Below are positions 6,203 to 46,119 of a stretch of 64,000 nucleotides of DNA, in pieces. The stretch spans positions 3,330,359 to 3,394,358 of the forward strand of contig OY843751.1 of NCBI GenBank assembly GCA_963693055.1, given 5' to 3'. Numbering within the stretch: position 1 is the stretch's first letter; every line of letters begins with the position of its first letter. Both the position numbers and the translations under genes were made by a program. The notes below the pieces were generated by a model. The model searched no databases and was not told where the DNA came from. It saw nothing but the letters and a program-made list of their open reading frames with translations. This stretch comes from a bacterium. GTDB taxonomy: Bacteria > Zhuqueibacterota > Zhuqueibacteria > Residuimicrobiales > Krinioviventaceae.

Positions 6203-6274
6203 TAAACCATCATTAAAGGAATAAACCCAGATTATAGGATTATCAGGATTGACTGATTAGAACAATTCCGGGCC

Positions 6275-6491
6275 CTGAGTGCGAGTGAGTGTCATGCTCA
6301 CGAGTGTATCGAAGGGCCAGTAATTGTCTGAATTAAGACCCTGATTAAAGGATTATCCTGTCTGACTTGATTAGAGCCGGGCTCTGAGTGCGAGTGAGTG
6401 TCATGCTCACGAGAGTATCGAAGGGCCAGTAATTGTCTGAATTAAGACCCTGATTAAAGGATTATCCTGTCTGACTTGATTAGAGCCGGGC
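6275..6491. repeat. Two tandem copies of a ~109-bp unit, with 1 mismatch between copies
   Basis: Unit 1 runs about 6275-6382 and unit 2 about 6384-6491; the units differ by GAGTGTATCG versus GAGAGTATCG. Each unit contains the hairpin GTGAG-TGTCATG-CTCAC and the family core GGGCCAGTAATTGTCTGAATTAAGACCCTGATTAAAGGATTATC. Confidence 0.85.
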
Positions 6492-6610
6492 CTGGTAAGC
6501 TGATCGCCCGGCACTTGAGTGCCGGGCGGAATATCACATTGGGACATGTGTCCCTACATACATAATTCAGGACAGAAGTCCTGACTAAAATTCCGCCGGG
6601 CACAAATGTA

Positions 6611-6700
6611 CCCGGCAATCAAAGGGCTGGTAATTGTCTAAATTATGACCATGATTAAAGAATTTAACAATGATTAAAGGATTATCAGGATTGCCATGAT
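6611..6700. repeat. Degenerate copy of the same repeat family
   Basis: AAGGGCTGGTAATTGTCTAAATTATGACCATGATTAAAG...ATGATTAAAGGATTATCAGGATTGCCATGATTAAA. A further partial copy lies at about 6770-6795 and a remnant at about 8925-8975. Confidence 0.6.
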
Positions 6701-6845
6701 TAAATCCGGGCGCTGTACTTTGACATGCTCAGCAACCGTGCTGCCTTCGCCTAAAGCAGATGGATTTATCAAAGGGCTGGTAATTGTCTTTTTACGTTAC
6801 CAAACAGGAGTTTGGTAACGAGTAAAAAAAACGGCAAACATGAGA

Positions 6846-6871
6846 CGCTCAAAAAGCTGATAGCTATCAGC
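6846..6871 (-). terminator. Terminator of the ABC-F gene
   Basis: The perfect 16-bp palindrome GCTGATAGCTATCAGC at 6856-6871 is followed on the minus strand by TTTTTGAG. It sits about 12 nt after the stop at 6883. Confidence 0.6.
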
Positions 6872-6882
6872 TATTAAAAACC

Positions 6883-8844
6883 CTATTCCTCATTCAACGT
6901 TGCTAGCAATTCTTCAATTTCCATCTGAGCGGTCTCCCACTGTTCCATGTTTTGCTGAAGATTGTTTTTCGCGTCTGCATATTCTTTTTGCAGCTGAGCA
7001 GCTTTGGGACCATCTTTGTAGGTTTCAGGATCAGCAAGTAATGTCTCTATTTCACCAATTCGTGTTTCAAGTATCTCAATCTGAGCTTCACAATCATCCA
7101 CTATTTTTTGGAATTGGTTCCGTTTTTTACTGATTGCCTGCCGCGCTTCCGCTTCTTTGCGTTTATCTTCTTTGGATTTCTTGACTATACTGGTTTTAGA
7201 TGTTGATTCAGTAGGACTAGAAGATTTGGAATCAGTGATTTTGGTTTCATCCTGCTGGCGTCTATGCAAATAATCAGAGTAATTGCCCTCATATACCCGC
7301 AAATGTTTTTCCTTGATCTCAATAACGCGAGTCACGAGTTTATCCAGGAAATAGCGATCATGTGAGATGAGAATAACTGTACCATCATAATATTTTAACG
7401 CATGTTCAAGCGCTTCTTTCGATGCCATGTCCAGATGGTTGGTAGGTTCATCCATAATCAAAAAGTTGACAGGCGACATTAATATCTTGGCAAGAGAAAC
7501 CCGTGCTTTTTCTCCACCCGACAATACCCCAACCTTTTTGAACACATCATCACCCGTGAACTGAAAAACGCCCAATACATCTCTAACCTGTGGTAACAGA
7601 CTGTCAGCAACAGAAGAACAAACCTCATCATAGACCGTTGCATTTAAATCCAACGTATCCACCTGATGCTGGGCATAGTAACCAATATCGGTCTTTTGGC
7701 CAACAGTAATTTCACCTTGCTGTTGTTCAAGCTGCCCTACTACCAGACGAGTGAGGGTTGTTTTACCGGCACCATTAACGCCTACCAATGCCAGTTTTTC
7801 ACCACGGTACAGATCCATATCCACATTTTCAAGGACCCAGTCCTTTTCGTATTTGAATGACATGTTTTTTACATGCAGTACTTCTTTATAACTTTGCTGA
7901 TGTACGGAAAGTTTAAAATTCAAGCGTCTTGGCGGTGGCGGCAGTACAACATCTTCAAGCTTATTTAGCTGTTTCACACGACTTTGTACCTGTTTGGCTT
8001 TACTGGCTTTGTAGCGAAAGCGATCAATAAACTCTTCCTGCTGTTGTCGTTTAGCTTTGACTTCTTCCTGTCGTTTCATCAACAGTTCAAGATTTTCTTC
8101 TTTTCTACGCTCATAATCGTGGTAATTACCGGGATAATGGGTCAGTTTGCCTCTGTCCAGTTCATAAATTTCATTACACAAACGTTCAATAAAATAACGG
8201 TCATGCGACACAATAACCATACTACCGCTGAAACTGAGCAAGTATTGTTCAAGCCATTCGAGTGAAGGTAAATCCAGATGGTTGGTAGGTTCATCGAGAA
8301 GCAGCAGATCCGGTTTCTGGATGAGCAAACGCGCCAAATAAACACGCATACGCCAACCACCACTAAAATCAGAGATAGGACGGTGAAAATCAGATACAGC
8401 GAATCCCAAGCCGGACAAAATCGCTTTAATACTGCTTTCCAGTTTGTATCCGTCAAGCACTTCATAACGGCTTTCCAGAGTGCCCAACTTTTTCAGCAGG
8501 GCATCGTGATCGCCTTCTCCATCTTCAAGCTGATGACGGATCTTGTAAATCTGTTCTTCCAGATCCAATAATTCTCCCTGACCTTCTAACGCAACCTCTA
8601 GAATACTGCCACGCTCAATACTGATCTCTTCCTGAGGAAGAAATCCTATAACATAATCTTTGGGTTTTATCTGCTCCATAGAATCAGGTTGCAGGTCACC
8701 ATTTACCACGCGTAACAAGGTGGTTTTCCCCGCACCGTTGGGGCCAATTAACGCGGAACGTCTACCAGGAGTTATGGTCCAGTTTACATCGTTAAATAAA
8801 TATCTTTCACCAATAGCATAATTTAATCGAGATATTTGCAGCAT
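6883..8844 (-). CDS. ABC-F family ATPase (tandem ABC domains, no transmembrane domain, C-terminal coiled-coil); translation/ribosome-associated, Uup/YheS/EttA-like
   Basis: There are two Walker A motifs (GPNGAGKTT, GVNGAGKTT), two ABC signatures (LSGGWRMRV, LSGGEKARV) and two Walker B motifs (LLLDEPTNHLD, LIMDEPTNHLD). A charged linker separates the domains and the C-terminal tail is rich in K and E. Confidence 0.93.
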   Translation of the reverse strand: MLQISRLNYAIGERYLFNDVNWTITPGRRSALIGPNGAGKTTLLRVVNGDLQPDSMEQIKPKDYVIGFLPQEEISIERGSILEVALEGQGELLDLEEQIYKIRHQLEDGEGDHDALLKKLGTLESRYEVLDGYKLESSIKAILSGLGFAVSDFHRPISDFSGGWRMRVYLARLLIQKPDLLLLDEPTNHLDLPSLEWLEQYLLSFSGSMVIVSHDRYFIERLCNEIYELDRGKLTHYPGNYHDYERRKEENLELLMKRQEEVKAKRQQQEEFIDRFRYKASKAKQVQSRVKQLNKLEDVVLPPPPRRLNFKLSVHQQSYKEVLHVKNMSFKYEKDWVLENVDMDLYRGEKLALVGVNGAGKTTLTRLVVGQLEQQQGEITVGQKTDIGYYAQHQVDTLDLNATVYDEVCSSVADSLLPQVRDVLGVFQFTGDDVFKKVGVLSGGEKARVSLAKILMSPVNFLIMDEPTNHLDMASKEALEHALKYYDGTVILISHDRYFLDKLVTRVIEIKEKHLRVYEGNYSDYLHRRQQDETKITDSKSSSPTESTSKTSIVKKSKEDKRKEAEARQAISKKRNQFQKIVDDCEAQIEILETRIGEIETLLADPETYKDGPKAAQLQKEYADAKNNLQQNMEQWETAQMEIEELLATLNEE

Positions 8845-9074
8845 AGTCCATTCAAAGTTTGTTCATACAAAGAAATGAATTTACTAAAGAATAGACAAAA
8901 ATCCCAATGGAAAAATAACCAAGATTAATACCATGATTAAAAAAGATTCACATGATTTACCATGATTGAAGGATCATATAGTTTTGAGCAAGAAATATTA
9001 TTATGCATTTTTATTTCTTTGCGTACACTGTGATATCTTGGCGACCTTTGCGATCTGTATTTTTTAAGCATTAA

Positions 9075-10490
9075 TTAATACTCGCTGAAATACAATCCCA
9101 CTTCCGAGATTAACGGACACGCGCGCGCATCATTAATGGTCAAACGGACATATCTGGATTTAACTGCATCAATCCGATCCAGCTTTTTATTACCAATGGT
9201 TGTGCCCTTACTCACCTCGATCCATTCATTACCGGACTTTACTTCCACAGTATATGCCTTTATCCGTTGCCCCATCATAATGGGTTCGCGAATTTCGACA
9301 ACATTAAAAGTCTTATCTTCTCCCAAATCCAATTCAAGAGATGCAGAAAGAGTATTATTGTCTGTGGTCCAATAAGTATTATTATCCTTGTCCACTACAT
9401 TCGCTGCCTTGAACTGTTCCGCGTTCCCCCTCACCTCACTTGCAGTTACAGTTGCACCATCAACAAGATTATCATCAAAAATGGAATCCAGTGCTTTTCT
9501 AAACTCATATAGCCGTTTAACATCAGCTTCTTCAAACAGTCCCCTGTCATTGGGTGGTATATTCAGCAACAGTACGCAATTCCGGCCAACGGATTTGAAA
9601 TAGATATCCAGCAAATGTTCAAGCGATTTGGGCTGCTGCTCCTTATGCCAGAACCAGCCTTTGCGTATAGATACATCACACTCGCCTGCCACCCAATCGG
9701 GTCCTTCAATATCACCACTATTTAAATATTTAGTATCGGCTTTACCGATTTTAACTCGGGATTTGTCGATCATGGACCAGCATGTTTCACCGGCAAAACC
9801 ATGTTCATTGCCAATCCAACGGACATCCGGGCCGGAATCGGAAAACATGCACACACCCGGCTGCATTTGGCGAACCAGCGACCAGAACATATCATAATCA
9901 TAGACCTGTACTTTACCATTGGGACCTTCTCCGCAAGCACCGTCAAACCACATCTCGGTCAAGGGACCATAATTTGTCATCAATTCCCGCAGTTGTCCGG
10001 TATAATACTGATTATACGCTTCTCCCTGTCCATAAGTCGCTTCGTGGCGGTCCCAGGGTGAGAGATAGATCCCCATGCTGATTCCAAATTTTTCACAGGC
10101 ATTAGAAAGCTCTCTAACTATATCTCCCTTGCCATCTTTCCAGGGACTGGTTTTCACGCTGTGATCGGTGTATGCGCTGGGCCAGAGGCAGAATCCATCG
10201 TGATGTTTGGCTGTAAGGATGACAGTTTTAAATCCGCATTCCTGAGCGGTTTTGGCCCACTGTTCTGCATCCAGATCGACAGGATTAAAGATTGCAGGTT
10301 CTTCGGTACCGTCTCCCCATTCCTTGTCTGTAAATGTATTGACAGTAAAATGCACAAACATGATCAATTCCTGTTGCTGCCAGGAGAGCTGTCTTGCCGT
10401 GGGTATGGGCAGGATGGGTGTGGGTGGTGTGGTTTGCGCGAACAGGTTAACAGACATAAAAAACAGGATAAATAATTTTAGAATTTTCAT
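9075..10490 (-). CDS. Alpha-L-fucosidase (GH29) with a C-terminal F5/8 type C (discoidin) domain; secreted
   Basis: The GH29 motif TAKHHDGFCLWPS is present, and the C-terminal region is discoidin-like. The start is chosen at the M of MKILKLFILFFMSVNLFAQ (signal peptide), which has a GGAG RBS. The ORF-track start at 10517 is 9 codons upstream. Confidence 0.88.
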   Translation of the reverse strand: MKILKLFILFFMSVNLFAQTTPPTPILPIPTARQLSWQQQELIMFVHFTVNTFTDKEWGDGTEEPAIFNPVDLDAEQWAKTAQECGFKTVILTAKHHDGFCLWPSAYTDHSVKTSPWKDGKGDIVRELSNACEKFGISMGIYLSPWDRHEATYGQGEAYNQYYTGQLRELMTNYGPLTEMWFDGACGEGPNGKVQVYDYDMFWSLVRQMQPGVCMFSDSGPDVRWIGNEHGFAGETCWSMIDKSRVKIGKADTKYLNSGDIEGPDWVAGECDVSIRKGWFWHKEQQPKSLEHLLDIYFKSVGRNCVLLLNIPPNDRGLFEEADVKRLYEFRKALDSIFDDNLVDGATVTASEVRGNAEQFKAANVVDKDNNTYWTTDNNTLSASLELDLGEDKTFNVVEIREPIMMGQRIKAYTVEVKSGNEWIEVSKGTTIGNKKLDRIDAVKSRYVRLTINDARACPLISEVGLYFSEY

Positions 10491-10841
10491 GATAACTCCG
10501 GGAATGGGTCTAACCACAAAGCCGCAAAGGACATAAAGATTTTAAATATACAAATAATCCATAAAAAAGAAAATGAATTGATGGATAATTCCCAATATTT
10601 CAACCATATCAAGAAATTAAAAATATCAGAAAGAAATGATCCGTGAGGAACCGTGTAAATCTGTGGCTTGAATTATTTGGCCATGGATTGACACTAATCC
10701 ACGCAGAATCTCTTCGCGTACTTAATCTTTGTTGTTCCCCCTAAATACAGATAAACCACGAAGGACACGAAACTCACGAAGAAAAACATTGTTTTTTATA
10801 CAATATGTTTTATTTTTAGTTAAACACAATAAGGGGAAATC

Positions 10842-11684
10842 ATGAGCGAAGAAAAAACCTGTTTCATCATAATGCCAATAACTACACCCGAATCACACTT
10901 GGAAGAATACAGAGATGGAAAAACACATTTCAAGCATGTATTAGATTGCCTATTGATACCCAGTGTAAAAAAAGCTGGATTTAAACCAATCCCACCAATT
11001 GCAAAAGGTTCTGATATAATTCAAGCAGAGATTATTAAAAATCTTGAAATATGTGAGCTGGTCTTGTGTGACATGTCAACATTGAATCCAAATGTTTTTT
11101 TTGAATTTGGTATAAGAACTGCTTTAAACAAGCCAGTCTGTGTTGTAAAAGACGAAATCACCCAAAAAGTGCCATTTGATACAACAAATATCAACTATCA
11201 TGAATATAATAGCTCAATAGATCCTTGGGAATTAACTTCTGAAATTGATGCATTATCAACACATATTATAGATTCCTATAAGAGGAGTAATAATAAAAAT
11301 ACTTTGTGGAAATATTTTGGATTAAAAGATAAAGCTATTCCATACCAAACTGAACCAGGTGAAAATTCTGATATTGAATATATTAAAATGCAAATCAATT
11401 CTATAAATCAAAAAATGGGAGGCTTTACTTACACTGAAAATGAAATAGGTCCATTAACTAAAGCTATAGTTAACTTAAACGATTCAAACAAACAGATTTC
11501 TAAGTCCAAAATATATAGAATAATTGAAGAATTCAAACCAACCACAGCTGAAATTGAAAATATTAAAATTCAAGATGGAAACATGATAAATATACATTAT
11601 ACAGGAAAGTGGTCAAGTGTTGATAAAATTCTCTTAATAGATTTCTTTAAGAAAGTACACTATAATGTACAATATGAAATGTAA
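10842..11684 (+). CDS. Standalone protein with an N-terminal NDT/TIR-like (nucleoside 2-deoxyribosyltransferase-like Rossmannoid) domain and an uncharacterised N/K/I-rich C-terminal half
   Basis: CFIIMPITTPE...DIIQAEIIKNLEICELVLCDMSTLNPNVFFEFGIRTALNKPVCVV matches the NDT pattern (AGPFF-like strand, then DSGTAFELGYAxALGKPV with a catalytic Glu in FFEFG). GC is about 33% against about 42% in the flanks. An AAGGGGAAATC RBS precedes it. Confidence 0.55.
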   Translation: MSEEKTCFIIMPITTPESHLEEYRDGKTHFKHVLDCLLIPSVKKAGFKPIPPIAKGSDIIQAEIIKNLEICELVLCDMSTLNPNVFFEFGIRTALNKPVCVVKDEITQKVPFDTTNINYHEYNSSIDPWELTSEIDALSTHIIDSYKRSNNKNTLWKYFGLKDKAIPYQTEPGENSDIEYIKMQINSINQKMGGFTYTENEIGPLTKAIVNLNDSNKQISKSKIYRIIEEFKPTTAEIENIKIQDGNMINIHYTGKWSSVDKILLIDFFKKVHYNVQYEM

Positions 11685-11782
11685 ATAATTTATATTAAAT
11701 AACACCTTTTAAAAATATATCACAAATCCTATTAAAGTAATCCACTACCTGCTTTGCGATCTTTGCGGCTTTGCGGTTATCT

Positions 11783-11816
11783 AAAAAAAAGCCCGTCCCA
11801 AAATCAGAACGGGCCC
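11783..11816 (-). terminator. Terminator of the minus-strand NIPSNAP/PTE/Ldh_2 operon
   Basis: Read on the minus strand, the hairpin GCCCGT...ACGGGC at about 11791-11814 is followed by T8. Confidence 0.6.
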
Positions 11817-11827
11817 AGGTATATTCA

Positions 11828-12619
11828 CTATATCTGCGAGCACCCAAGCGGACGCAGGATAATATCTGTGATATTGGATACGGTGTCTTTGTACTTTTCC
11901 ACCTCACGCAGCTGTAACCAATCCGGATGGGTACGGAACTTGTCCCAACTGGCAAAACGCTCATCCATGTCGTTAAACGCCAGCATATAGGTCAAATTCG
12001 GCATCATGGGGCCTACAATAGTCTGCCCAAACAAAACAGGATTCAAATCGGAATCTTTGAAAATATCAATCTCGCTGCCATTGTTAAACATTTCAACTTT
12101 GAGATTACCGGCCTTAACACTGTGACTCTCGTAAATACGTATTTCATAAATGCGGCTCTTGTTTTTCAACATTTCTGTTGGCACCTCTACCTTGGGCATG
12201 TGCGCAAAACATTGCAGTAAAGAGGATTCCCTGCGAACATACGCTATATTATCCAGCGTTGTGTTGAGGAAATCTGCGCCGGCTTTATTATATTCCGCAT
12301 CATCCAGTAATTTTTGAGGTACTGTTAATACAGATTCTATATTGGGGTGCGGGATCATAATATACAAAGTGGGGTCAGTAGGACCAAAAAAGACATTGAA
12401 CGCACCCACGTTTTTAATGCCTGCACGATTCAATGCGGGTATAGCCGCATCACGATAAAATTCTTCAACGCGGTTCTTGCCAGAACCCACATTCAACCGA
12501 TATTTAATCAATTCAACAATTTCCTGTTTTCCTGTAGCAGCATTTGCATCACTTTGCATGCCTGCCATGGTGGCGGCGCCGGCTGCAACAGAAGCTGATA
12601 AAAAATCTCTACGCTTCAT
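11828..12619 (-). CDS. TAT-secreted NIPSNAP-family protein (tandem NIPSNAP-like domains)
   Basis: The twin-arginine signal reads MKRRDFLSASVAAGAATMAG. The second half matches the NIPSNAP pattern (YEIRIYESHSVKAGN...NPVLFGQ). An AAGGAAGGA RBS precedes it. Confidence 0.6.
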   Translation of the reverse strand: MKRRDFLSASVAAGAATMAGMQSDANAATGKQEIVELIKYRLNVGSGKNRVEEFYRDAAIPALNRAGIKNVGAFNVFFGPTDPTLYIMIPHPNIESVLTVPQKLLDDAEYNKAGADFLNTTLDNIAYVRRESSLLQCFAHMPKVEVPTEMLKNKSRIYEIRIYESHSVKAGNLKVEMFNNGSEIDIFKDSDLNPVLFGQTIVGPMMPNLTYMLAFNDMDERFASWDKFRTHPDWLQLREVEKYKDTVSNITDIILRPLGCSQI

Positions 12620-12631
12620 ATTTTTCCTTCC

Positions 12632-13603
12632 TTAATTTTTCCTTACACGTATTGTATATGCGTGTTTTGGATTTTCAACCAATAACTGATTAATTTCCAA
12701 ATCAGTAAACCCACTTTGTTTTAATGCAGGAATCAATTTCAGGGACAATGAGGCATAATCCCGAAAATCTCCACCATTCGGTTCTCCTACACGGTACCAG
12801 CCCGCATCATGAGATAACAAGACATGGTTCAACACATTATTCGCTTTCATTACGGAAAGCATTTCAACTATCGACTCTATTCGTTTCGGATCGTCCCGCA
12901 TATTATCAATGGATACCCAACCACCCTGTTTTGCAAAACGGATTCGCTCTTCATCTATACCTCGTTGCGAATGTGTCCAGATAAATGCTTGTGGCGAAAC
13001 ACCTTCTTCGTCAAGTATTTCCAACTGTTGAAAGGCCGGTGAACCGGGACCAGTATGAGAATTAATTGTTAATCCGGTAGCAAGGTGGGTTTTGGCTGCA
13101 GCGCGGGCAAGTTTAGCGTGCAGTTCGGATAACACAGAATCTCTGGCAACTGCAATTTTTATAAAACCCGGTTTAATACCCGTATCTTCAATACCATTCT
13201 GCCATTCGGAAATCCATCGTTCAGCCAACTGTTCGGCAGTTTTGGTATGTGCGTGTTTAGGAATATATTGATCATTCATTGCTCCGTAATAACCGGTATT
13301 GGTCAGAATATACATCCCCGATTTTTCGGACAGCATCTTACAAAGCAAGGGATCTCGTCCCACATATGCGGGTGTACATTCAACAAGGGTTTGTATTCCA
13401 AGATCTTTGATTTGTTGCAGATAAGGTAAAACTTTGGCAGTAACCTCTTCTCTATCCCAGCGATGGTAACCTGTACTGTCTGCACCTATAAAATCCACCA
13501 AAACATGTTCATGGCTCAACGTCTGGCCCATGTCATCCGGTGAAATGGCACCATTCACAGTCATCACAATGCTGGTTTCTTTCTGACTTTTACAGGAAAC
13601 CAA
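12632..13603 (-). CDS. Phosphotriesterase-family (PTE/PHP, amidohydrolase superfamily) protein; a probable N-terminal frameshift removes the lipoprotein signal
   Basis: Diagnostic motif GQTLSHEHVLVDF. The ORF as given starts at a TTG. Upstream in the same frame lies ...KKIFYLLLFLVLVSCKSQ (a lipobox) with no ATG. An ATG at about 13639-13641 is in the +1 frame (MIKKYFICFFFWSWF...*) and is separated from this frame by an A7 tract (T7 at 13630-13636). Confidence 0.8.
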   Translation of the reverse strand: MVSCKSQKETSIVMTVNGAISPDDMGQTLSHEHVLVDFIGADSTGYHRWDREEVTAKVLPYLQQIKDLGIQTLVECTPAYVGRDPLLCKMLSEKSGMYILTNTGYYGAMNDQYIPKHAHTKTAEQLAERWISEWQNGIEDTGIKPGFIKIAVARDSVLSELHAKLARAAAKTHLATGLTINSHTGPGSPAFQQLEILDEEGVSPQAFIWTHSQRGIDEERIRFAKQGGWVSIDNMRDDPKRIESIVEMLSVMKANNVLNHVLLSHDAGWYRVGEPNGGDFRDYASLSLKLIPALKQSGFTDLEINQLLVENPKHAYTIRVRKN

Positions 13604-13651
13604 GACCAGAAAAAGAAGCAGATAAAATATTTTTTTATCATTCTCTTTGCC

Positions 13652-14665
13652 TTATAAGCTTTTAATAGTGTTCCATATATTTTCATTCATGGGAATTCCG
13701 TTTTCCAGATTGTCTTTACGTATCTGTAACACACGTTCTCCCGGATAGGTTATTTCAGTTGAGATGTTTGATGATTTGGAATTTTTCACATCTTGAATGA
13801 TGCTATCTACAACATCCAAAACATGGTTAGCGGAATGCAGCTTTGTAATATCAATCGCGATAAATACCTGAGACACATTGTATTCACGTACAGGATCACC
13901 ACCAAGATCACCAACCTGTTTGGTCGATAATCCGCCAGAGATGAGTGTTGCAATTATATCCAGCAACATAGACAGGCCCGCGCCTTTCCAGTATCCTACA
14001 GACAAGGGTCGTTGCGCTTCCAGGATATCTGCCGGATCAGTAGTCAAATCCCCGGCTTTATTGAAACCACCGGGTATAGATAATTGCTGCCCCGCCTGTT
14101 TGACGACCTCCATTTTGCCATAAGAAAACTGTGACATGGCCATATCAAGTACAACCGGCGTTTCTTTTCCGGGCACAGCCAGAACCAAAGGATTGTTTCC
14201 CAGGCGGCAATCGGTTGCTCCCCAAGCCGGCATATTAGGCATGGTGTTCGTCCAGCCGATATAAATAAAGCCATCAGCAGCAACACGACGACCATAAGAG
14301 CCCGCCCTCATCCAATGATTGGTATGGGCCAACCCCACACAACCAATACCAAATTCTGTTGCAAGCACTTTTGCCCGGTCTGCCATTGCCAATGCATTCA
14401 AAATACCGGGGCCCAGTTTTCCATCCCATTGTTCCAGAGCGCCCATCACATTCACATTTACAGGTTCAGCATCTACAATTACCAACTTGCGTTTGATCTG
14501 ATCAATAAACCGGGGGAACCGGTTTGCACCATGAGAATAAACACCCTCAAGGCTGGATTCTGCAAATACAAAAGCCAATGTTTCAGCTTTTTCGGTGGTA
14601 AATCCATACTTTTTCAATACCCTTATGAACTCGGCTTGCATCTCATTAAATTGGATTCTTTTCAT
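13652..14665 (-). CDS. Ldh_2 family (malate/L-lactate dehydrogenase-like, YiaK/AllD-type) NAD(P)-dependent oxidoreductase
   Basis: HGANRFPRFID, GIGCVGLAHTNHW and PMPAWGATD are characteristic of PF02615 proteins. Confidence 0.8.
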   Translation of the reverse strand: MKRIQFNEMQAEFIRVLKKYGFTTEKAETLAFVFAESSLEGVYSHGANRFPRFIDQIKRKLVIVDAEPVNVNVMGALEQWDGKLGPGILNALAMADRAKVLATEFGIGCVGLAHTNHWMRAGSYGRRVAADGFIYIGWTNTMPNMPAWGATDCRLGNNPLVLAVPGKETPVVLDMAMSQFSYGKMEVVKQAGQQLSIPGGFNKAGDLTTDPADILEAQRPLSVGYWKGAGLSMLLDIIATLISGGLSTKQVGDLGGDPVREYNVSQVFIAIDITKLHSANHVLDVVDSIIQDVKNSKSSNISTEITYPGERVLQIRKDNLENGIPMNENIWNTIKSL

Positions 14666-14702
14666 ATTTCACCTGTACTCTGGTTAATATTCAATATCGG
14701 AA

Positions 14703-15266
14703 TCAAAGTTGAGTAGCTTTACGTTTCTCAATAAATCTTGAAAAAAGTTGATAAACTGTAATAACAAAATATGCACAACAAACACCAACAAAGCCTCCTA
14801 CCAACACATCAATAGGATAGTGAACACCAACATATATTCTTGAAATCCCAACCAGTACCGCAAAAGTCCAGTACACATACCAACCTTTTGGAAAAAAGTA
14901 GGTAAAAAATGCCGCAGTAGCAAAGGAATTGGATGCATGTGCAGATGGAAAAGAAAATGATGTTTTCATCCCAATCAACATGTTAACATTTTCAAGAGCA
15001 ACACAGGGCCTGGCTCTTCCAATCAAGGGCTTCAGGAAACCTGCCGAAATCTGATCACTAAATGTGATTACAAAAATTATTAATAAAGCAGCAATTCTTC
15101 CCTTTTTGCCCCCCTTCCATAATAACCAGACATAAAAAACCAGAAATATAGGATACCAGTGTTTCTGGTTCGTAATAAAAGGCATAAACCAATCAAAAAA
15201 GGGATTACTAAGCGAATGATTAAAAAAATAAAAAACAACAGTATCTATATGTTGAAGCCATTCCAT
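14703..15266 (-). CDS. PAP2-family membrane phosphatase (phosphatidic acid or undecaprenyl-diphosphate phosphatase-like)
   Basis: All three PAP2 motifs are present: KPLIGRARPCV, SFPSAHASNS and SRIYVGVHYPIDVLVG. The start is chosen at MEWLQHIDTVVFY. The ORF-track start at 15431 adds 55 residues of doubtful N-terminus. Confidence 0.85.
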   Translation of the reverse strand: MEWLQHIDTVVFYFFNHSLSNPFFDWFMPFITNQKHWYPIFLVFYVWLLWKGGKKGRIAALLIIFVITFSDQISAGFLKPLIGRARPCVALENVNMLIGMKTSFSFPSAHASNSFATAAFFTYFFPKGWYVYWTFAVLVGISRIYVGVHYPIDVLVGGFVGVCCAYFVITVYQLFSRFIEKRKATQL

Positions 15267-15463
15267 TGTAAAAATCCTCTGTATCAAATTTGAACTTTTG
15301 GAATATATGAATATGGAATAATTTTTGCAAATTTTAATTCGGAAAAATAAACCAAAACAGCACAAGGCAATATTTAACAATATCTTAAGATAGCAAACAA
15401 AACCCTTAAACAATGCAGATACAGAGTCCAAATTAACCTCTTAATGCCCAAAGGACACACCGA

Positions 15464-18421
15464 ATGGAAACCAGCTTATTACAAGAATTCGTAGATCATT
15501 ACAATATTTCTTATATTTTCACAGATACCAACCATAAAATAATAAAAATGGAAGGAATGCTCTTTCCCAAACTGGTAAGCAATCTGCATTACATAGATAT
15601 TAAAGATCAACAGTTATGGGACATACTCCCCTTTCTTGAACCTTATCGCACACGAATAACAGGGGTTTATAGCGGACACGCTCCAAAATATTCATTCAAT
15701 TTTAAAAGTGAGAATCCAAAGCTGGAAGAAATCCAAATCAACGTAATATCAAAAACAGATAAAGATCCTGCCGGTTTTTTGTATATTTTTAATGAATTGA
15801 ATGAAAATGGTAAAAGTAAGGTCGGAAACACATTTCAAATTTTACCTTCAAGAGATATACAGCAATCTATTTATAAACAGAAATATGAATTATCTGATCT
15901 TATCCCCCTTTCTGATTTGCAACACTTTCAAAATATGTTTGCAGATGCCACACGTGTAGCTTCATTAATTCTTGATGTTAATGGACACGCAATCACCAAA
16001 CCCAGTAATTATAATCCTGTATGCAAACGTATCCAAAAGCATATCAGAGGGATGCAGGATTGTCAATTTTCAGATAACAAGCTTGCTGAAAAAGCCAAAC
16101 AAGAGGAACAGATTGTATACCAGAGATGTGACAATTGCGATTTTTTAAACGCAGCTATTCCTATCTGGGTTGCTGGCAGACATATCGCCAATTGGATGGT
16201 GGGGCAAATTAAAACCGGTCCAACTGATAGCAACAGAATCATAGAATACGCTCAAAAGCTCCACATTGATGAAAACGAGTTACTAGAAAATTACGAACAA
16301 TTGAAACCCATGTCAGAACAAGAGTTTAAAAGCAGGGTTGAATTATTGAATATTTTTGTACAAAAGCTCTCAATATACATGTACAACAATATGATCATGG
16401 CTTCTGAAATTGTTAATCTCAACCAGATTCGTCATGACCTGGACCATGAAAGAAATTTATTACAGACATTGATGGATAACATTCCGGACTTTATCTATTT
16501 TAAGGACAATGAAAGCAAATTTACCAGAATAAACATTGCTCATGCTCACAATTTAAATGTTTACAGTCCCTCAAAGGCAATTGGTTATACAGATTTTAAA
16601 TTTATCGATGAAGAAACTGCAAGAGAAACTGCAGAAGATGAAAACAATCTACTCAACACCGGCAGACCTTTGATCGGTAAAATTGAAATGATAAAAAAGC
16701 TGGATGGTAAAATAAGGTGGATATCTACTACCAAAGTCCCCGTCAAAGATGGCAACGGACAAATAACCGGCCTGGTTGGGATATCGCGTGATATTACAAA
16801 AATCAAAAGAGCCGAAGAACGATTATTGAAAAAAAATGAGCAATTAGATAAAGCGCTTCAGGCAGCTCAACAGGCAACACAGGCAAAATCTGAATTCCTT
16901 GCCAATATGAGTCATGAAATCAGAACACCTATGAATGGTGTGATAGGTATGACCAGTTTATTGCAAAACACAGATCTTGATCCTGAACAAAAGGAATATG
17001 TAGATACCATTAAGACCAGTGGTGACGGTTTGATGGTTATCATAAATGATATTCTGGACTTTTCCAAGATAGAATCCGGCAAAATGGAACTGGAACAACA
17101 TCCTTTTGATATTCGTGAATGTGTTGAAGAGACGCTTAATATTCATTCCCCCAATGCAAATAAAAAAGGATTGGAACTCACCTGCCTGTTTGATCCCAGT
17201 ACTCCTACAAAAATCATTGGAGATGTAACCCGCATTAGACAAGTTCTGAATAACCTTTTAGGTAATGCAATAAAATTTACCAAAGAAGGTGAAGTGGTAG
17301 TATATGTAAGGTCCCGTGAAAAAAGTGAAGATTTTTATGAACTTGAATTTGCCATTCAAGATACCGGTATAGGTATAGCGGAAGAAAGAATGGGACTTTT
17401 ATTTCAAGCGTTTAGCCAGGTCGATGCCTCAATAACACGGAAATACGGTGGTACGGGTCTGGGACTCGCTATTAGTAAAAAACTATCAAATTTGATGGGT
17501 GGAGATATTTGGGTTAAAAGCAAAGCCGGTAAAGGTTCAACGTTTTACTTTACCATACAAACCAAAATCTCTAAAGGCATTATTAGCGATGACGCATTAA
17601 CCAAAACACTTGATAACAAGAGTATTCTAATTGTTGATGATAATGACACAAATCGTCGTATTCTCGAATTGCAGACACGTGCATGGAATATGAAAACAGA
17701 CAATACCGGGTACCCGCTTAAAGCTTTAGAATGGCTCAAACAAGGTAAAACCTATGATGTAATTCTGTTAGATATGATGATGCCGGAAATGGATGGATTA
17801 ACACTTGCAGAAGAGATCCGCAAGCTGAATGCTCATAAAGGTACACATCTTATCATGCTTACTTCCGTAACCCGAACAGACGAGCATAACCAGCGGTTCA
17901 AAGATTTGAATTTTAGTAATGTATTATCAAAACCTGTAAGACAGGCTGTATTAATGAACACACTGGTTGAAGCATTTAGTGGAAAACAAACCGAACAAAA
18001 AGAAAATGTTATTTTCAAAATGGATGAACAGATGGCGGAACAATTTCCGCTAAACATTCTTGTGGCAGAAGATAATAAAATCAATCAACGGTTGGCACTC
18101 AAGGTTTTAAAAAAGTTGGGATATGATGCAACTATTGCTGAAAATGGCAAAGAAGCTATAGAGATGATGGAAAAACAATCTTTTGACATCATTTTTATGG
18201 ATATTCAAATGCCAATCATGGATGGATTTGAAACCACACAATATATAATAAATAAATGGCATGATGATCGTCCGCGTATCATTGCAATGACAGCAAATGC
18301 CATGGAAGGTGACAAAGAAGCATGTTTAAATGCGGGGATGGACGCATATATCAGTAAACCCATCAACATCAAAAGTTTGGTTAATGAATTAAAAAACAAC
18401 TATCCAGACATGAATGAATGA
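15464..18421 (+). CDS. Cytoplasmic hybrid sensor histidine kinase: PocR-like sensory domain + PAS + HisKA + HATPase_c + two receiver domains
   Basis: The PocR-like region reads DATRVASLILDVNGHAITKP...CDNCDFLNAAIPIW. The H-box is [18 protein letters not shown], and the ATPase has the N, G1 and G2 boxes (GTGLGLAISK). REC1 reads [12 protein letters not shown]...DMMMPEMDG and REC2 reads ILVAEDNKINQ...DIQMPIMDG. No TM segment is found. Confidence 0.9.
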   Translation: METSLLQEFVDHYNISYIFTDTNHKIIKMEGMLFPKLVSNLHYIDIKDQQLWDILPFLEPYRTRITGVYSGHAPKYSFNFKSENPKLEEIQINVISKTDKDPAGFLYIFNELNENGKSKVGNTFQILPSRDIQQSIYKQKYELSDLIPLSDLQHFQNMFADATRVASLILDVNGHAITKPSNYNPVCKRIQKHIRGMQDCQFSDNKLAEKAKQEEQIVYQRCDNCDFLNAAIPIWVAGRHIANWMVGQIKTGPTDSNRIIEYAQKLHIDENELLENYEQLKPMSEQEFKSRVELLNIFVQKLSIYMYNNMIMASEIVNLNQIRHDLDHERNLLQTLMDNIPDFIYFKDNESKFTRINIAHAHNLNVYSPSKAIGYTDFKFIDEETARETAEDENNLLNTGRPLIGKIEMIKKLDGKIRWISTTKVPVKDGNGQITGLVGISRDITKIKRAEERLLKKNEQLDKALQAAQQATQAKSEFLANMSHEIRTPMNGVIGMTSLLQNTDLDPEQKEYVDTIKTSGDGLMVIINDILDFSKIESGKMELEQHPFDIRECVEETLNIHSPNANKKGLELTCLFDPSTPTKIIGDVTRIRQVLNNLLGNAIKFTKEGEVVVYVRSREKSEDFYELEFAIQDTGIGIAEERMGLLFQAFSQVDASITRKYGGTGLGLAISKKLSNLMGGDIWVKSKAGKGSTFYFTIQTKISKGIISDDALTKTLDNKSILIVDDNDTNRRILELQTRAWNMKTDNTGYPLKALEWLKQGKTYDVILLDMMMPEMDGLTLAEEIRKLNAHKGTHLIMLTSVTRTDEHNQRFKDLNFSNVLSKPVRQAVLMNTLVEAFSGKQTEQKENVIFKMDEQMAEQFPLNILVAEDNKINQRLALKVLKKLGYDATIAENGKEAIEMMEKQSFDIIFMDIQMPIMDGFETTQYIINKWHDDRPRIIAMTANAMEGDKEACLNAGMDAYISKPINIKSLVNELKNNYPDMNE

Positions 18422-18438
18422 AATGGTGATACGATAAA

Positions 18439-21400
18439 ATGATCCAATTTAATAAAATACTTGTTGTTTGCGTTGTCTTTTTCAATATTTCTTTAATCTT
18501 TGCTCAGAATATTGAATTTCTAAGGTCAAGAAACGAGCAACTGGAACAACGTGATTTGAATAGATACAGGTGGGACCACTTGACTAAACGTGATGGTTTA
18601 GGCCAGGGAAATGTTGACTATATTTTAAAAAAGTCTGATGGAAATATTTGGATGGTTACCGGCAGCCAGGGTGCAGAAGGTACAGGCATAACCATTTGGG
18701 ATGGATATAAATTTAGAAAGCTTACCACAGATAATGGGCTCTCTACAAATCAAATAACTTCAATTATAGAAGATCTTGAAGGAAATGTTTGGATAGGTAC
18801 AAAAACAAAAGGATTGGCAGTATATCTCAACGATAATATTTGGAAATATTACACCACAAAAGATGGATTAAAAAATAACTTTATTACCTCTTTATATGCT
18901 GACAGACAGGGGCGTATATGGGTAGGCTCATTAAATGGTGTTTCCTTTTTTCAAAATAATGAATTCTTGTCGCTGCAACATTCACCAATGACAGATTCAC
19001 TGGCAATACAAGCTATCTATCAGGCTCCCGATAAGAGCATGTGGTTTGCACAGGAGCCGGGTAATGTTTTTCGTTATAAAGACGGTAAATGGAAATACTG
19101 GACATTATCACAAAATTCATTATGGACGAATATAAATCATTACAACTTTGTTGAATTTAAGCCTAATGAACTATGGTTGCCAACCAATAATGGTATATTT
19201 ATTTTTACAAAAGACCGATATAAACATATCGATACCCGAAACGGACTTCCAGGAAATCAAATTACAGATTTAAAAAAATTCAGCAATGGGAATTTGTACC
19301 TTTGTACAGAATTTAATGGAATTGGTGTCTATGATGGTAATATTTGGAGACATTATAACGATTATGATGGACTCGGAAACGACGTAACGTTTTCTATTGT
19401 CGAAAATGGCGATAATATTCTTATTGGTACCATGACGGGGCTCACAGTATGGCATCCATCAAATTGGAAATACATTACAAAACAAAACGGCTTGTTAACC
19501 AATAGTGTACGTAATGTATTAATTCAGGAGGATAACAGCATATGGTTTTCCACTCCTATGGGCATTGCCGTAAATGAAAATGGTAAATGGCGTTATTTCC
19601 ATCAAAAAGATGGCTTGCCGGGAAAATTCTGCAATAAACTATACAGCGATAACCAAAATAATATTTGGGTCACCTGTACCGACTGGCAATCCAAAGAAAG
19701 CGGCATGGCAATTTATAACAAAAGCACATCTAGATTTGATTATAAAGGGAATTTTCAATCCTTTATTTTCAAAAGTTCAGATGGTGCAGTATGGGCAGGT
19801 AATACAAATAACTGGAAGACCCAAAGAGATCTATTAGTCAGAATTAAAGATGATGTAAAAACAACCTTTAATGAACAAAACGGATTTCCTCTTCTCTCCT
19901 GCTATGGCGGTTTTGAAGCTAAAGATGGTTCCATTTGGATTTATTCAAAACATAATGGAATTGCTGTTTTCAAAAATGAAAATTGGAAACATTTAACAAC
20001 AAAAGATGGTTTGTGCAGTAATAAAATCAGTTCCATGTATCAAACCAGAAATGGAGATATTTGGGTTGGGAGCATGGACAAGGGTGTTTCTATTTACAAA
20101 GAATACAAGTGGAATACTTTTGATAAAAGAAACGGATTTAATGGATCATTCATTAATAATATTCTGGAGACAAAAGAAGGTCATATCTGGTTTGGCTCAG
20201 AAGGTGATGGCATTATCATTTTTGATGGTGAAAACTTTGAACAAATGACCAAACATGGGGGCTTGCCAAGTAATCTGATTTGGGACCTAGACCTGGCAAA
20301 AGATGGCTCAATCTGGGTTAGTACCAAAGACAAAGGCGTTGCAATTTATAAACATTCGGAAAACAAAATACCTCAAACTATAGTATATGATAATGCAAAT
20401 TGGTTAATAAGTAATAATAATAATAAAAACAACTATTATACGATCTTGGAAGATAGCACTCAATATTTGAATAATGTAAGTATTGCCGGACTAAACTGCC
20501 ATCCGACAAGAAAATTAAATGATATTGTAATTAAGGGAAATAAGCTTGACCTGTATGTAGATGCACTTGTCAAATGGCATAAAACAAACTCTGGGATGTT
20601 TAATTATTCATGGAAAATTGATGATCAACCTTGGAGCAAATATGTAAAGGGACCGGTAATTCATATTAAAGATTTAACCAGCGGTCCTCATACATTAGCG
20701 GTACGAGCCAAATCTCCACTGTTTCATGTAGATCCTAACCCTGTGATAGTTGAATTTCGTATCATCAAACCTGTTCCTGTGCTGGCAATCAGTTTTATAA
20801 TTTTGGGAATTATTATCGTATTAATTTCTATTAAACTGTTTGTCATCTCTCAGGAAAAGAAGCGCATTAAATATGATATGGAAGAAGCAGAACGCCAGAT
20901 AGAAATTGCCGAACAAGACCGTCGAATTTTAGAACTGGAAAAACTACGGGCCATACAGGAAAAAGAAATAGAACGTAAAGAAAAAGAATATTCTCTTCAG
21001 GCACAAAAAGTATTAGAAGAAGCTAAAGACCTGGCTGAAGAAGCTACCCGGGCCAAGAGTGAATTTCTTGCCAATATGAGTCACGAAATTAGAACTCCCA
21101 TGAATGCCGTAATAGGGCTTACCGGATTATTGCTCGAAACAGAACTGGATGAAGAACAACGCGATTATGTAGAAACTGTCAAATCCAGTGGTGATGCACT
21201 CATGTCCGTAATAAACGATATTCTGGATTATTCTAAAATTGAATCCGGAAAAATGCAATTTGAACAACAACCATTTAAACTGCGGGATTGTATCGAAAGT
21301 TGTCTGGAGTATCATGCAACCAATGCAGCTAAAAAAAACCTGGATCTTACTTATTATATTGAACCCGGCATTCCTGATGTAATCATCGGAGACTTTAACA

Positions 21401-22611: not shown

Positions 22612-22781
22612 CAGAAAAGTAGGCCATAATGACAGATTTACTGACAATCCTGCAATTATTCTGGCAACTCCGCAAATCCGCTAACTGACTGTTAATTAGC
22701 TGCTTACATCATAAAATATCTTTTGCACAGAATTTGCTGCATAGACTCAAAAAAATGCATCAAATTCATGAAAGGATAATC

Positions 22782-46056: not shown

Positions 46057-46119
46057 CCCCTTTATCCCCTTTATCCCCTTTATCCCCTTTATCCCCTTTA
46101 TCCCCTTTATCCCCTTTAT
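46057..46119. repeat. Perfect microsatellite (CCCCTTTAT)x7
   Basis: Seven uninterrupted 9-bp units lie in the AT-rich spacer about 185 bp upstream of the dGTPase ATG. On the island coding strand this reads (ATAAAGGGG)7, that is G4 tracts spaced by 5 nt. Confidence 0.95.

Follow-up and report, generated by a model that had tools for sequence, protein, structure and literature searches.

The locus considered here raises the question of whether a standalone gene of low GC content belongs to a biological conflict system or serves some other, for instance metabolic or selfish, end. The gene lies in the window, i.e., the whole 64,000-nucleotide stretch of bacterial DNA that we analysed, and belongs to a large, uncharacterised family without a dedicated entry in Pfam, NCBIfam or PADLOC, whose members are labelled "hypothetical" nearly everywhere. 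Because it combines a one-gene, low-GC, strain-specific insert with a conserved NDT/TIR-like N-terminal domain (the head) and a hypervariable tail, we regard it as a plausible single-protein candidate for anti-phage defence. The arguments are as follows.

The gene and its strain-specific segment

The open reading frame (Table 1) proved to be real, its ATG start and N-terminus agreeing with the alignment of homologues. Its GC content of 0.293 is below the 0.409 of the flanks; the dip noticed in an earlier, sequence-only reading of this DNA is thus confirmed, while the figure of about 33% given there was too high. That reading had also credited the gene with a ribosome-binding site of its own, and the AAGGGG hexamer in front of the start codon is indeed Shine-Dalgarno-like and may well act as such. 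The terminator beyond the gene had rightly been assigned to the opposite strand, where a NIPSNAP gene (11828-12619, minus strand) converges on the ORF.

Table 1. Features of the locus (positions in the window).
Feature	Position	Strand	Basis and remarks
Host triplet array (CNCAAAG x3), just 5' of the fucosidase start	10511..10538	+	Pairs, as left arm, with the downstream array (28-nt inverted repeat); conserved in L082
Upstream CACGAA triplet array, CACGAAGGA-CACGAAACT-CACGAAG	10757..10781	+	Host DNA, outside the insert; the left breakpoint comes 9 bp after its end
Strain-specific variable segment, 994 bp, low GC	10791..11784	.	blastn of the window against L082, which has an unrelated 915-bp segment instead
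AAGGGG, Shine-Dalgarno-like element, 5 nt 5' of the ATG	10831..10836	+	Within the variable segment; read from the sequence, function inferred
Standalone ORF, 280 aa, ATG start; coordinates include the stop codon	10842..11684	+	ORF calling and homologue alignment
N-terminal NDT/TIR-superfamily Rossmannoid head, aa 1-165	10842..11336	+	AlphaFold, Foldseek, Pfam, PADLOC
GAA codon of E88 in FFEFG, predicted catalytic Glu	11103..11105	+	Aligned to the Rcl/DNPH1 catalytic Glu in GVGYELG
Linker, aa 166-215, with amphipathic coiled-coil-like helix, aa 174-193	11337..11486	+	Low model confidence; weak Lpp/leucine-zipper-type matches
Hypervariable C-terminal alpha-beta-beta-alpha-beta module, aa 216-280	11487..11681	+	pLDDT above 90
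Downstream array of 3 x CTTTGCG-type units, CTTTGCGAT-CTTTGCGGC-TTTGCGG	11752..11779	+	Right edge of the variable segment; absent from L082
Intrinsic terminator (hairpin and T-run) of the converging NIPSNAP gene	11789..11816	-	Conserved host DNA; homology with the relative restarts here

The DNA of the closest relative, hereafter L082, is 86-94% identical to the window and collinear with it, at 88-89% identity, over 6883-10790 and 11785-22613, and blastn found no homology between the two across 10791-11784, a stretch which in the window contains one ORF only and in L082 is replaced by an unrelated gene. Accordingly, the description of the gene as an isolated inserted cassette is supported, and a place in a syntenic core-genome context, which would have spoken against it, was not found. 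In the related genomes compared, homology is limited to the gene or to its head, and the locus in the window has neither transposase nor integrase nor target-site duplication. The segment is best read as a horizontally acquired, strain-specific islet of 1 kb with a single self-contained gene.

The N-terminal head and its predicted active site

In the AlphaFold model the head has the element order b1-a1-b2-a2-b3-a3-b4-b5-a4 (pLDDT mostly 80-97), with CFIIM forming strand 1, as had been anticipated for CFIIMPI. The best Foldseek matches of the model are NDT (8pqr, E=5.8e-4), MilB (4ohb), DNPH1 and BcmB, with probabilities of 0.96-1.0 and TM of about 0.5, together with TIR structures (RPS4, RPP1, SARM1, SfSTING; E from 2e-3 to 2e-2), so the NDT/TIR-like fold suggested from the letters is borne out by structure prediction. 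Profile searches point the same way: Pfam PF05014 (Nuc_deoxyrib_tr) matches the window protein with 16.4 bits (E=0.0099), below its gathering threshold of 28.8 bits, and all 72 of the 72 homologues tested, likewise sub-threshold (best E=1.9e-4), and the PADLOC profile PDLC00733 (CBASS "Effector TIR") matches the window protein with E=5.5e-6 and again 72/72 homologues (best E=3e-8). A PDB profile match was marginal (E=0.027). It should be noted, as a point against a role in conflict, that the sequence matches to NDT, DNPH1 and TIR proteins are all sub-threshold or marginal.

In the profile alignment E88 of FFEFG coincides with the Rcl/DNPH1 catalytic Glu and NKPV with GKPI, in keeping with the catalytic position proposed for this residue. 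In the NDT of L. leichmannii the catalytic Glu is E98, situated at the start of the helix that follows the central strand. All family members compared (267/267) have E88, and distant phage and plasmid relatives keep it too. Altogether nine polar or aromatic head residues, the Glu at the catalytic position among them, are invariant in these 267 sequences. H29, D77, N82, R92, D104, D113 and Y122 are polar residues that, like E88, do not vary, and the mean pairwise identity of the head is 69%.

With the NDT, DNPH1 (Rcl) and MilB-BcmB enzymes (PF05014, clan Nribosyltransf) the family shares the flavodoxin-like Rossmannoid fold and the motif register, namely a hydrophobic strand 3, a loop and xxxE-x-G...(G/N)KP(V/I). 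However, every member stays below the Pfam gathering score, strand 1 (CFIIMP) lacks the Gly-rich phosphate or sugar loop, and there are additional invariant residues (H29, H32, R92, D104, PFD113, Y122, W129, H141, N153, W156) and about 115 further amino acids, which form the coiled-coil linker and the hypervariable domain; the gene, moreover, is mobile and patchy rather than metabolic. The acidic residue D69 in helix 2 of Rcl, mutated in PDB 2klh and 4fyh, belongs to a variable D/A/N column that aligns with I64 of the family. A second acidic residue is thus absent at this position of the profile alignment, Ile being found instead, and the chemistry may therefore differ from that of DNPH1.

The linker and the C-terminal module

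The C-terminal part had been called unassignable. This holds insofar as the module gave no significant fold match, only a weak KH-II/RbfA/NusA-like resemblance, an observation which also tells against a conflict function; yet the region is not featureless, consisting of a coiled-coil-like linker and a confidently modelled small alpha/beta domain. Mean pairwise identity falls to 30% in the linker and to 16% in the module. In two members of the family (L004 and L010), whose genes are 90% identical in DNA, the C-terminal module has been swapped, and the identity breaks off sharply. The module is best explained as a small domain conserved in structure and hypervariable in sequence. We propose that the tail is sensor-like, as the difference between 69% identity in the head and 16% in the C-terminal domain and the sharp break in L004/L010 would suggest.

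Distribution and genomic neighbourhood of the family

At 50% identity the family falls into 767 clusters if the cut-off is E<=1e-30; with E<=1e-10 there are about 3,300. Its distribution is patchy, covering many bacterial phyla and methanogenic archaea, and a survey of 185,579 species genomes yielded no more than 78 loci. The GC content of the gene is below that of its own flanks at 48/62 loci (median -0.07).

Clustering of the neighbours at the 78 loci revealed no recurrent partner gene, and no Pfam family occurs more than twice among the 128 immediate neighbours. Known multi-gene systems were considered and rejected on these grounds. A type II toxin-antitoxin pair is contradicted by the lack of a recurrent neighbour cluster, and of any conserved adjoining small ORF that could encode an antitoxin, across the 78 loci, and by a variable segment made up of this ORF alone. 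A retron with an NDT-like effector would call for a reverse transcriptase and an msr/msd ncRNA beside the gene; the window has no RT-like ORF there, no neighbour is conserved, and a search of 10300-12000 against Rfam gave no credible match. As to CBASS, Pycsar and Thoeris, whose TIR NADase effectors share with the family the PDLC00733 match in 72/72 members, the Foldseek matches and a Glu at the equivalent position after strand 3, the close family differs from them in having no match to Pfam TIR, TIR_2 or CAP12-PCTIR_TIR at E<=1 in its 72 members. No CD-NTase, pyrimidine cyclase or ThsB-type signal generator neighbours the gene in the window, and no family recurs at the 78 loci or among the 128 neighbours that could take this part. 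With neither a cyclase nor a SAVED, STING or ThsA partner in the vicinity, the protein cannot be a signal-activated effector of these systems.

Whether homologues sit in defence islands had been raised as a question, and such an association proved to be only occasional. RES toxin, type II restriction-modification, HEC-06 and PDC-S21/S35 genes are occasional neighbours, one member lies within an integrated phage-like element, and another, in an island with a transposase, adjoins a CAP12/Pycsar-type TIR gene; most homologues, however, occur singly between housekeeping genes, outside any recognisable defence island. The surroundings of the window copy are of the housekeeping kind too, and in three Chlorobaculum genomes the gene is syntenic, therefore with some vertical persistence. 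Both observations speak against a conflict role.

They would suit a metabolic or housekeeping N-glycosidase or transferase, acting for example in nucleotide salvage or sanitising like DNPH1, MilB/BcmB or NDT, with no part in conflict and with the tail as an oligomerisation or regulatory domain. NDT, DNPH1/Rcl, MilB and BcmB are, after all, the best sequence and structure matches. Nevertheless, we consider such a function unlikely. A metabolic gene would hardly be confined to so few loci despite a head 69% identical across phyla and archaea, have a GC content systematically below that of the host, lack any biosynthetic or salvage operon partner, or be missing where a relative, its flanking protein being 96% identical, has a different gene in the slot. 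The same is true of a C-terminal module that is hypervariable and swapped between near-identical genes, of the relatives located in prophage lysogeny modules, and of a head without the Gly-rich phosphate loop of DNPH1 in strand 1 and with Ile in place of D69.

Distant relatives on phages and plasmids

Uncharacterised distant relatives are encoded on temperate phages, among them a P2-like Pantoea phage-plasmid, where the gene lies between the CI repressor and the integrase, Streptococcus (Javan) prophages, where it lies in the lysogeny module, a Klebsiella lambdoid prophage, where it lies in the early accessory region, as well as E. coli prophages and Staphylococcus phages. These proteins of 229-305 aa are of similar size, standalone like the window gene, retain all core residues of the head in common with the window family and show sub-threshold matches to PF05014, CAP12-TIR and PDLC00733. 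They differ in that the identity, 25-37%, is limited to the head and their tails are unlike those of the window family, which itself is almost entirely chromosomal. In the viral contigs of IMG/VR the close family is nearly absent, being represented by one locus, and this, again, speaks against a conflict role.

The location of these relatives brings up a selfish or offensive function, i.e., an orphan toxin, an addiction module, or a counter-defence enzyme derived from a phage or another mobile element, which would break down signalling nucleotides of the immune response (cADPR-type, cyclic oligonucleotides) or signals derived from NAD. Occurrence on prophages, the phage-plasmid, the integrated phage-like element and plasmids, the low GC and mobility of the gene, the toxin-antitoxin and restriction-modification genes that sometimes adjoin it, and the resemblance of the head to enzymes acting on nucleotide N-glycosidic bonds are all in line with this idea. 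To our mind it is as improbable as the metabolic one: there is no conserved small ORF alongside to serve as an antitoxin, the window copy and most others occupy chromosomal contexts free of mobile elements, and the close family is almost missing from viral contigs. The prophage relatives, moreover, share their site with the repressor and integrase, which implies expression during lysogeny, a trait typical of the defence genes of prophages rather than of early anti-defence genes.

Repeats around the gene

Two triplet repeats of 9-bp period, at 10757-10781 and 11752-11777, had been taken for possible boundary or regulatory elements. Both exist: the upstream array gives 2 overlapping pattern matches versus 0.26 expected, and the downstream one, with period 8 according to TRF, gives 4 matches of its 16-mer versus 0.34 expected and 0/100 in shuffles. 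As equivalent boundaries they fail, since the upstream array is host DNA, present also in L082 (as CAACGAAGGATACGAAACTCACGAAGG), which lacks the gene, and the downstream one is inside the variable segment. The downstream array forms, with the host array in front of the fucosidase gene, an inverted repeat of 28 nt (82% complementary, 1.2 kb apart). Triple arrays of this sort are rare, the window having 6 of them versus 1.6 expected and a maximum of 4 across 30 shuffles.

Could these repeats delimit a discrete mobile cassette carrying the gene, be it MITE-like, IS-like, integron-like or a substrate of site-specific recombination? The inverted repeat scores 16.5 versus a shuffle maximum of 11, the 16-mer is confined to the two arms within the 64-kb window, and the breakpoints come 9 bp past the upstream array on the left and 5 bp past the downstream array on the right. 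Against this, the left arm and the upstream triplet are host DNA kept in L082, 250 bp and 9 bp outside the segment, the alternative cargo of L082 has no right-end array matching the downstream triplet, and the locus is devoid of the transposase, integrase and target-site duplication expected of such a cassette. Nor are the repeats a feature of the family: a flanking inverted repeat above the null was found at only 4/62 other loci, with no common motif, and the UTR DNA of the window gene is shared with no other locus. We therefore hold a repeat-bounded cassette to be very unlikely, and an IS, MITE or integron cassette was rejected on account of the conserved host DNA in one arm and the upstream triplet and of the lack of a recombinase nearby.

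Proposed function and significance

Our preferred reading, to which we give roughly even chances, is that the protein is a single-protein sensor-effector N-glycosidase for biological conflict, most likely acting in anti-phage abortive infection. In this case the helix and the C-terminal module would determine the oligomeric state and sense a trigger derived from the invader, whereupon the head would hydrolyse an N-glycosidic bond, either of NAD+, as TIR domains do, or of a nucleotide, as DNPH1 and MilB do, and the cleavage would deplete an essential metabolite. In favour of this reading we count the fold and the invariant Glu, the lack of a partner gene, the mobility of the gene (missing from L082, GC-poor, patchy across phyla), the few members beside phage-like or defence genes, the swapped C-terminal module, the relatives in prophage lysogeny modules and on plasmids, and the precedent of Swarozyc (below). 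That the protein is an enzyme, what it cleaves, and that it oligomerises, senses a trigger and confers defence is what we infer from the sequences and the model. That it is instead a TIR-like scaffold or regulator devoid of catalysis, or an ORFan in decay without current function, is scarcely credible: AT-rich composition and the failure to reach any curated family threshold would suit it, but nine head residues, the Glu at the catalytic position among them, never vary in the sequences compared (267/267), hundreds of clusters preserve an intact ORF of uniform length (about 280 aa), and both domains are confidently modelled.

NDT/TIR-superfamily N-glycosidases are a recurring weapon in prokaryotic and eukaryotic immunity, and the family, with an ultra-conserved predicted catalytic head, a coiled coil, a swappable hypervariable tail and no partner, is a compact candidate for a new one-gene defence system. 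It also lends itself to studying the gating of a TIR/NDT-type enzyme by a small recognition module. More speculatively, and with rather low probability, it may be an immune module made up of one gene, very widespread in bacteria and archaea and so far unrecognised, in which a coiled coil joins an NDT/TIR-like head that hardly changes at all to a fast-evolving exchangeable recognition module of about 60 aa (possibly KH-like). The substrate of the head would then be not plain NAD+ but a nucleotide species, e.g., a phage-modified (d)NMP (cf. DNPH1, MilB), or a base in nucleic acid. Such a chemistry, should the nucleotide-species reading be true, would be new to defence by standalone proteins.

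The concept of a sensor-effector defence protein has a counterpart in Swarozyc, a single protein with a DUF4062 TIR-like NADase domain, an essential Glu and a C-terminal auxiliary domain needed for defence, which is activated by the phage portal (bioRxiv 10.64898/2026.05.01.722283). The window family, known from sequence and model, likewise joins a TIR/NDT-like head with a Glu to a C-terminal auxiliary domain in one polypeptide; it differs in that DUF4062 (PF13271) matches 0/72 of its members at E<=1 and that its tail, a coiled coil plus an alpha/beta module of about 60 aa, is of another kind and much smaller. A homologous head (tblastn E=3e-9) is also found in proteins annotated as "TRAFs-binding domain-containing protein", one of them encoded on a plasmid, in which it is fused to TPR-S/PF13281 (MAP3K_TRAF_bd). 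They keep C7, P12, D77, N82, N84, E88, G90, R92, FD113 and Y122 and, as in the window family, have the head followed by a presumed C-terminal sensor, but are about 420 aa long, with a TPR-S array (PF13281 E=8e-37, PF20308 E=2e-26) and an identity of about 26%; PF13281, PF20308 and TPR have no match in the 72 members of the window family. As for the locus itself, the window and L082 together document a precise 1-kb "slot" in which unrelated low-GC genes are swapped between otherwise collinear genomes.

Fold and predicted active site

The AlphaFold2 model of the window protein, built from a 72-sequence alignment, has a mean pLDDT of 80.9 and comprises a confident alpha/beta head (aa 1-160), a low-confidence helix (aa 174-193) and a confident a-b-b-a-b module (aa 221-280). 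The elements of the head follow the order b1 (CFIIM), a1, b2, a2, b3 (LVLCD), a3 (PNVFFEFGIR), b4 (VCVVKD), b5, a4, CFIIM thus being the first strand, as the sequence-only reading had proposed. Foldseek against PDB ranked a Chroococcidiopsis NDT at the top (E=5.8e-4, TM 0.53 to the target), and MilB, DNPH1, BcmB and the TIR domains of RPS4, RPP1, SARM1 and SfSTING were among the first-ranked matches. In Pfam, the window protein matches PF05014 with 16.4 bits, below the cutoff of 28.8; the same sub-threshold match occurs in 72 of 72 aligned homologues, none of which reaches the threshold, and all 72 match the PADLOC CBASS "Effector TIR" model PDLC00733 (best E=3e-8). No match to DUF4062 or to the canonical TIR models of Pfam was obtained for any of these homologues, and NCBIfam holds no model for the family. 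Taken together, the predicted structure and the profile matches support the affiliation of the head with the NDT/TIR superfamily, which the sequence-only reading had suggested.

A head-only profile aligns ADLVLCDMSxLNPNVFFEFGIRTSLNKPV with ADVVVAEVTQPSLGVGYELGRAVALGKPI of Rcl/DNPH1 (E=0.027), so that E88 of the FFEFG motif stands opposite the catalytic Glu and NKPV opposite GKPI. E88 is unchanged in all 267 family sequences, and H29, D77, N82, R92, D104, F112, D113 and Y122 are likewise invariant among them, in agreement with the earlier proposal that the Glu of FFEFG is the catalytic one. The position equivalent to D69 of Rcl is occupied by Ile; therefore, simple orthology of the family to DNPH1 or NDT does not hold.

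Family distribution and genomic neighbourhoods

Over 1,000 homologues, about 280 aa in length and with few exceptions labelled "hypothetical", came from the word-indexed search, and the exhaustive profile search, clustered at 50% identity, gave 767 clusters at E<=1e-30, 3,279 at E<=1e-10 and 11,872 at E<=1e-3. The best 150 profile matches are all 212-386 aa long, the match spanning the first ~200 residues. The 78 loci recovered from GTDB contigs (one genome per species) belong to Planctomycetota, Zixibacteria, Nitrospirota, Chlorobiota, Chloroflexota, Verrucomicrobiota, Actinomycetota, Acidobacteriota, Desulfobacterota, Pseudomonadota and Bacteroidota, and among archaea to Methanoperedens, Methanosarcinaceae and Methanolobus. 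Mean pairwise identity falls from 69% in the head (minimum 59%) to 30% across the linker and 16% over the C-terminal module; two Planctomycetota genes share 90% DNA identity up to about codon 194 and are unrelated beyond it, and in other locus pairs the similarity is confined to the head or to the gene. Modelled alone, the C-terminal module has a pLDDT above 90, and the structure search with it returned no significant match, only a faint likeness to KH-II, RbfA and NusA modules (best E=0.11).

More distant, head-only relatives (25-37% identity) were found by tblastn in 58 phage records and 29 plasmids, and retain C7, P12, D77, N82, N84, E88, G90, R92, FD113 and Y122. They lie between the CI repressor and the integrase in a P2-like Pantoea phage-plasmid, in the lysogeny module of Streptococcus phage Javan566, and between the replication and nin genes of a Klebsiella lambdoid prophage; in six or more further streptococcal prophages, the distance to the integrase end is 3-6 kb. 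In Escherichia phage vB_EcoM-689R2 (L085 3438-4199, 4929-5846) the relative is located about 700 bp from a separate "TIR-like domain-containing protein" gene, both surrounded by genes for replication (DNA polymerase, helicase, nuclease), and an Aliarcobacter plasmid encodes the same head fused to a TPR-S/PF13281 array. These positions and fusions thus suggest that the head is a reusable, putatively catalytic module that is combined with differing presumed sensor tails and frequently carried by temperate elements.

Clustering of all ORFs within 6 kb of the 78 loci revealed no recurrent neighbour, the largest clusters (ABC ATPases, histidine kinases, SDRs) covering 7-9 loci at scattered positions. 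No Pfam family is represented more than twice in the 128 genes immediately adjacent to the homologues. The majority of these are housekeeping genes, and a few are conflict genes (two RES, two type II REases, a MTase, HEC-06, PDC-S21, PDC-S35, CAP12-PCTIR_TIR and mads3); one further homologue examined has plain housekeeping surroundings. The Chlorobaculum copy is flanked by a Xre-RES toxin-antitoxin pair and a BglII-like endonuclease, and another member (L091 8001-9767) immediately precedes a CAP12/Pycsar-type TIR-domain gene in the same orientation; the island around them also contains a DDE transposase, a fragment of RHS and a protein with ankyrin repeats. A full-length member (48% identical) is carried by a ~15-kb integrated phage-like element (L090 1669-16833) with a large serine recombinase, Phage_min_cap2 and GP7, whose insertion site lies between the Rieske and cytochrome b genes of the host. 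We consider a metabolic N-glycosidase rather unlikely, and a selfish-element or counter-defence enzyme appears improbable to about the same degree.

In two homologue loci (L002/L003 9170-9710, 11440-12480) the region is locally rearranged: the homologue lies between truncated (158 aa) and full (315 aa) copies of an HMGL-like gene, a ~100-bp upstream segment is duplicated and an FGE-sulfatase-like pseudogene remnant is present. ARAGORN found no tRNA there, despite a tRNA-like 3' motif.

Proposed function

The best-supported reading of the window protein is a standalone sensor-effector, whose head would act as an NDT/TIR-superfamily N-glycosidase on NAD+ or a nucleotide, and whose coiled coil and hypervariable tail would set the oligomeric state, control the head and recognise a trigger. 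We infer catalysis, substrate, oligomerisation, trigger and phenotype alike. The closest functional precedent is Swarozyc, a single-protein system that couples a TIR-like NADase of the DUF4062 type to an auxiliary domain, is switched on by the phage portal and requires both the catalytic Glu and the auxiliary domain (10.64898/2026.05.01.722283); the window family, in contrast, is not DUF4062. It also differs from other known systems: it lacks the nearby signal generator of a CBASS, Pycsar or Thoeris effector, the reverse transcriptase and ncRNA of a retron effector, the partner gene of a toxin-antitoxin toxin and the TPR array of a PF13281/TPR-S protein, and so is none of these. The window gene is an uncharacterised architectural variant in a well-known class of conflict enzymes, and a good candidate for experiment.

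The variable slot and the triplet repeats

The NIPSNAP protein encoded beside the window gene is 96% identical to a homologue from a 2.45-Mb contig of a close relative (L082), which is collinear with window positions 1435-22613 at 86-94% nucleotide identity except for 10791-11784. The corresponding 915-bp slot of L082 (10871-11752) contains an unrelated 293-aa ORF on the other strand (GC 0.27), with a signal-peptide-like N-terminus and no match in Pfam or PADLOC. So a variable slot separates the NIPSNAP terminator from the fucosidase leader, and the window gene fills it in a strain-specific manner, which supports its description as an isolated inserted cassette. Because L082 has a different low-GC gene there, the slot is an exchange hotspot for unrelated 1-kb cargo. 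Elsewhere in the collinear region, the intergenic stretch 6203-6882 is rearranged relative to L082; at 6268-6492 it holds a 109-bp unit repeated 2.1 times (97% identity).

Features of the window gene and its surroundings
Feature	Position	Strand	Remark
ORF	10842-11684	+	280 aa; start codon backed by conserved homologue N-termini
AAGGGG element	5 nt 5' of ATG of the ORF		read from sequence
Hairpin, then T-run	11789-11816	-	terminator
Upstream 9-bp-period triplet	10757-10781		CACGAAGGA-CACGAAACT-CACGAAG
Downstream 9-bp-period triplet	11752-11777		CTTTGCGAT-CTTTGCGGC-TTTGCGG
3x arrays of C[AG]C[GA]AAG-like units in leader	10514-10538; 10642-10668 (inverted); 10757-10781		

Both 9-bp-period triplets are present as reported, and the window contains few such triple arrays (6 observed vs ~1.6 expected). 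The ~280-bp leader 10511-10790, 5' of the fucosidase gene (9075-10517, minus strand), is kept in L082 at ~85% and has no credible Rfam match; since it is conserved there as a whole, the leader, including the upstream CACGAA triplet, is host DNA. The left breakpoint follows the CACGAA array at a distance of 9 bp. The downstream triplet is located within the variable segment, its array (11752-11779) stopping 5 bp before homology resumes at 11785, and repeats the host array 10511-10538 in inverted orientation (23/28 nt). Flanking inverted repeats exceed the shuffle null in only 4 of 62 other loci, triplet arrays near these homologues have no motif in common, and no other locus shares the UTR DNA of the window locus. 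Therefore, we do not regard the repeats as mobile-element termini: the earlier suggestion that they could be boundary elements over-interpreted them, and a mobile cassette bounded by inverted repeats is quite improbable. The intergenic DNA that separates ORFs 44502-45872 and 46350-48515 (both minus strand) contains, at 46057-46119, a perfect 9-bp x 7 tandem repeat, CCCCTTTAT.

The ORF itself is as first delineated, with a start that agrees with the homologue N-termini, and the least probable reading is that it is non-catalytic or decaying. Its low GC had also been noted, at about 33%, and is lower still: GC drops to 0.26-0.33 across the gene and is 0.293 in the ORF vs 0.409 in the flanks. The family gene is GC-poorer than its own flanks in 48 of 62 loci and richer in only one (median difference -0.07). 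The hairpin downstream does read on the minus strand, as had been stated.
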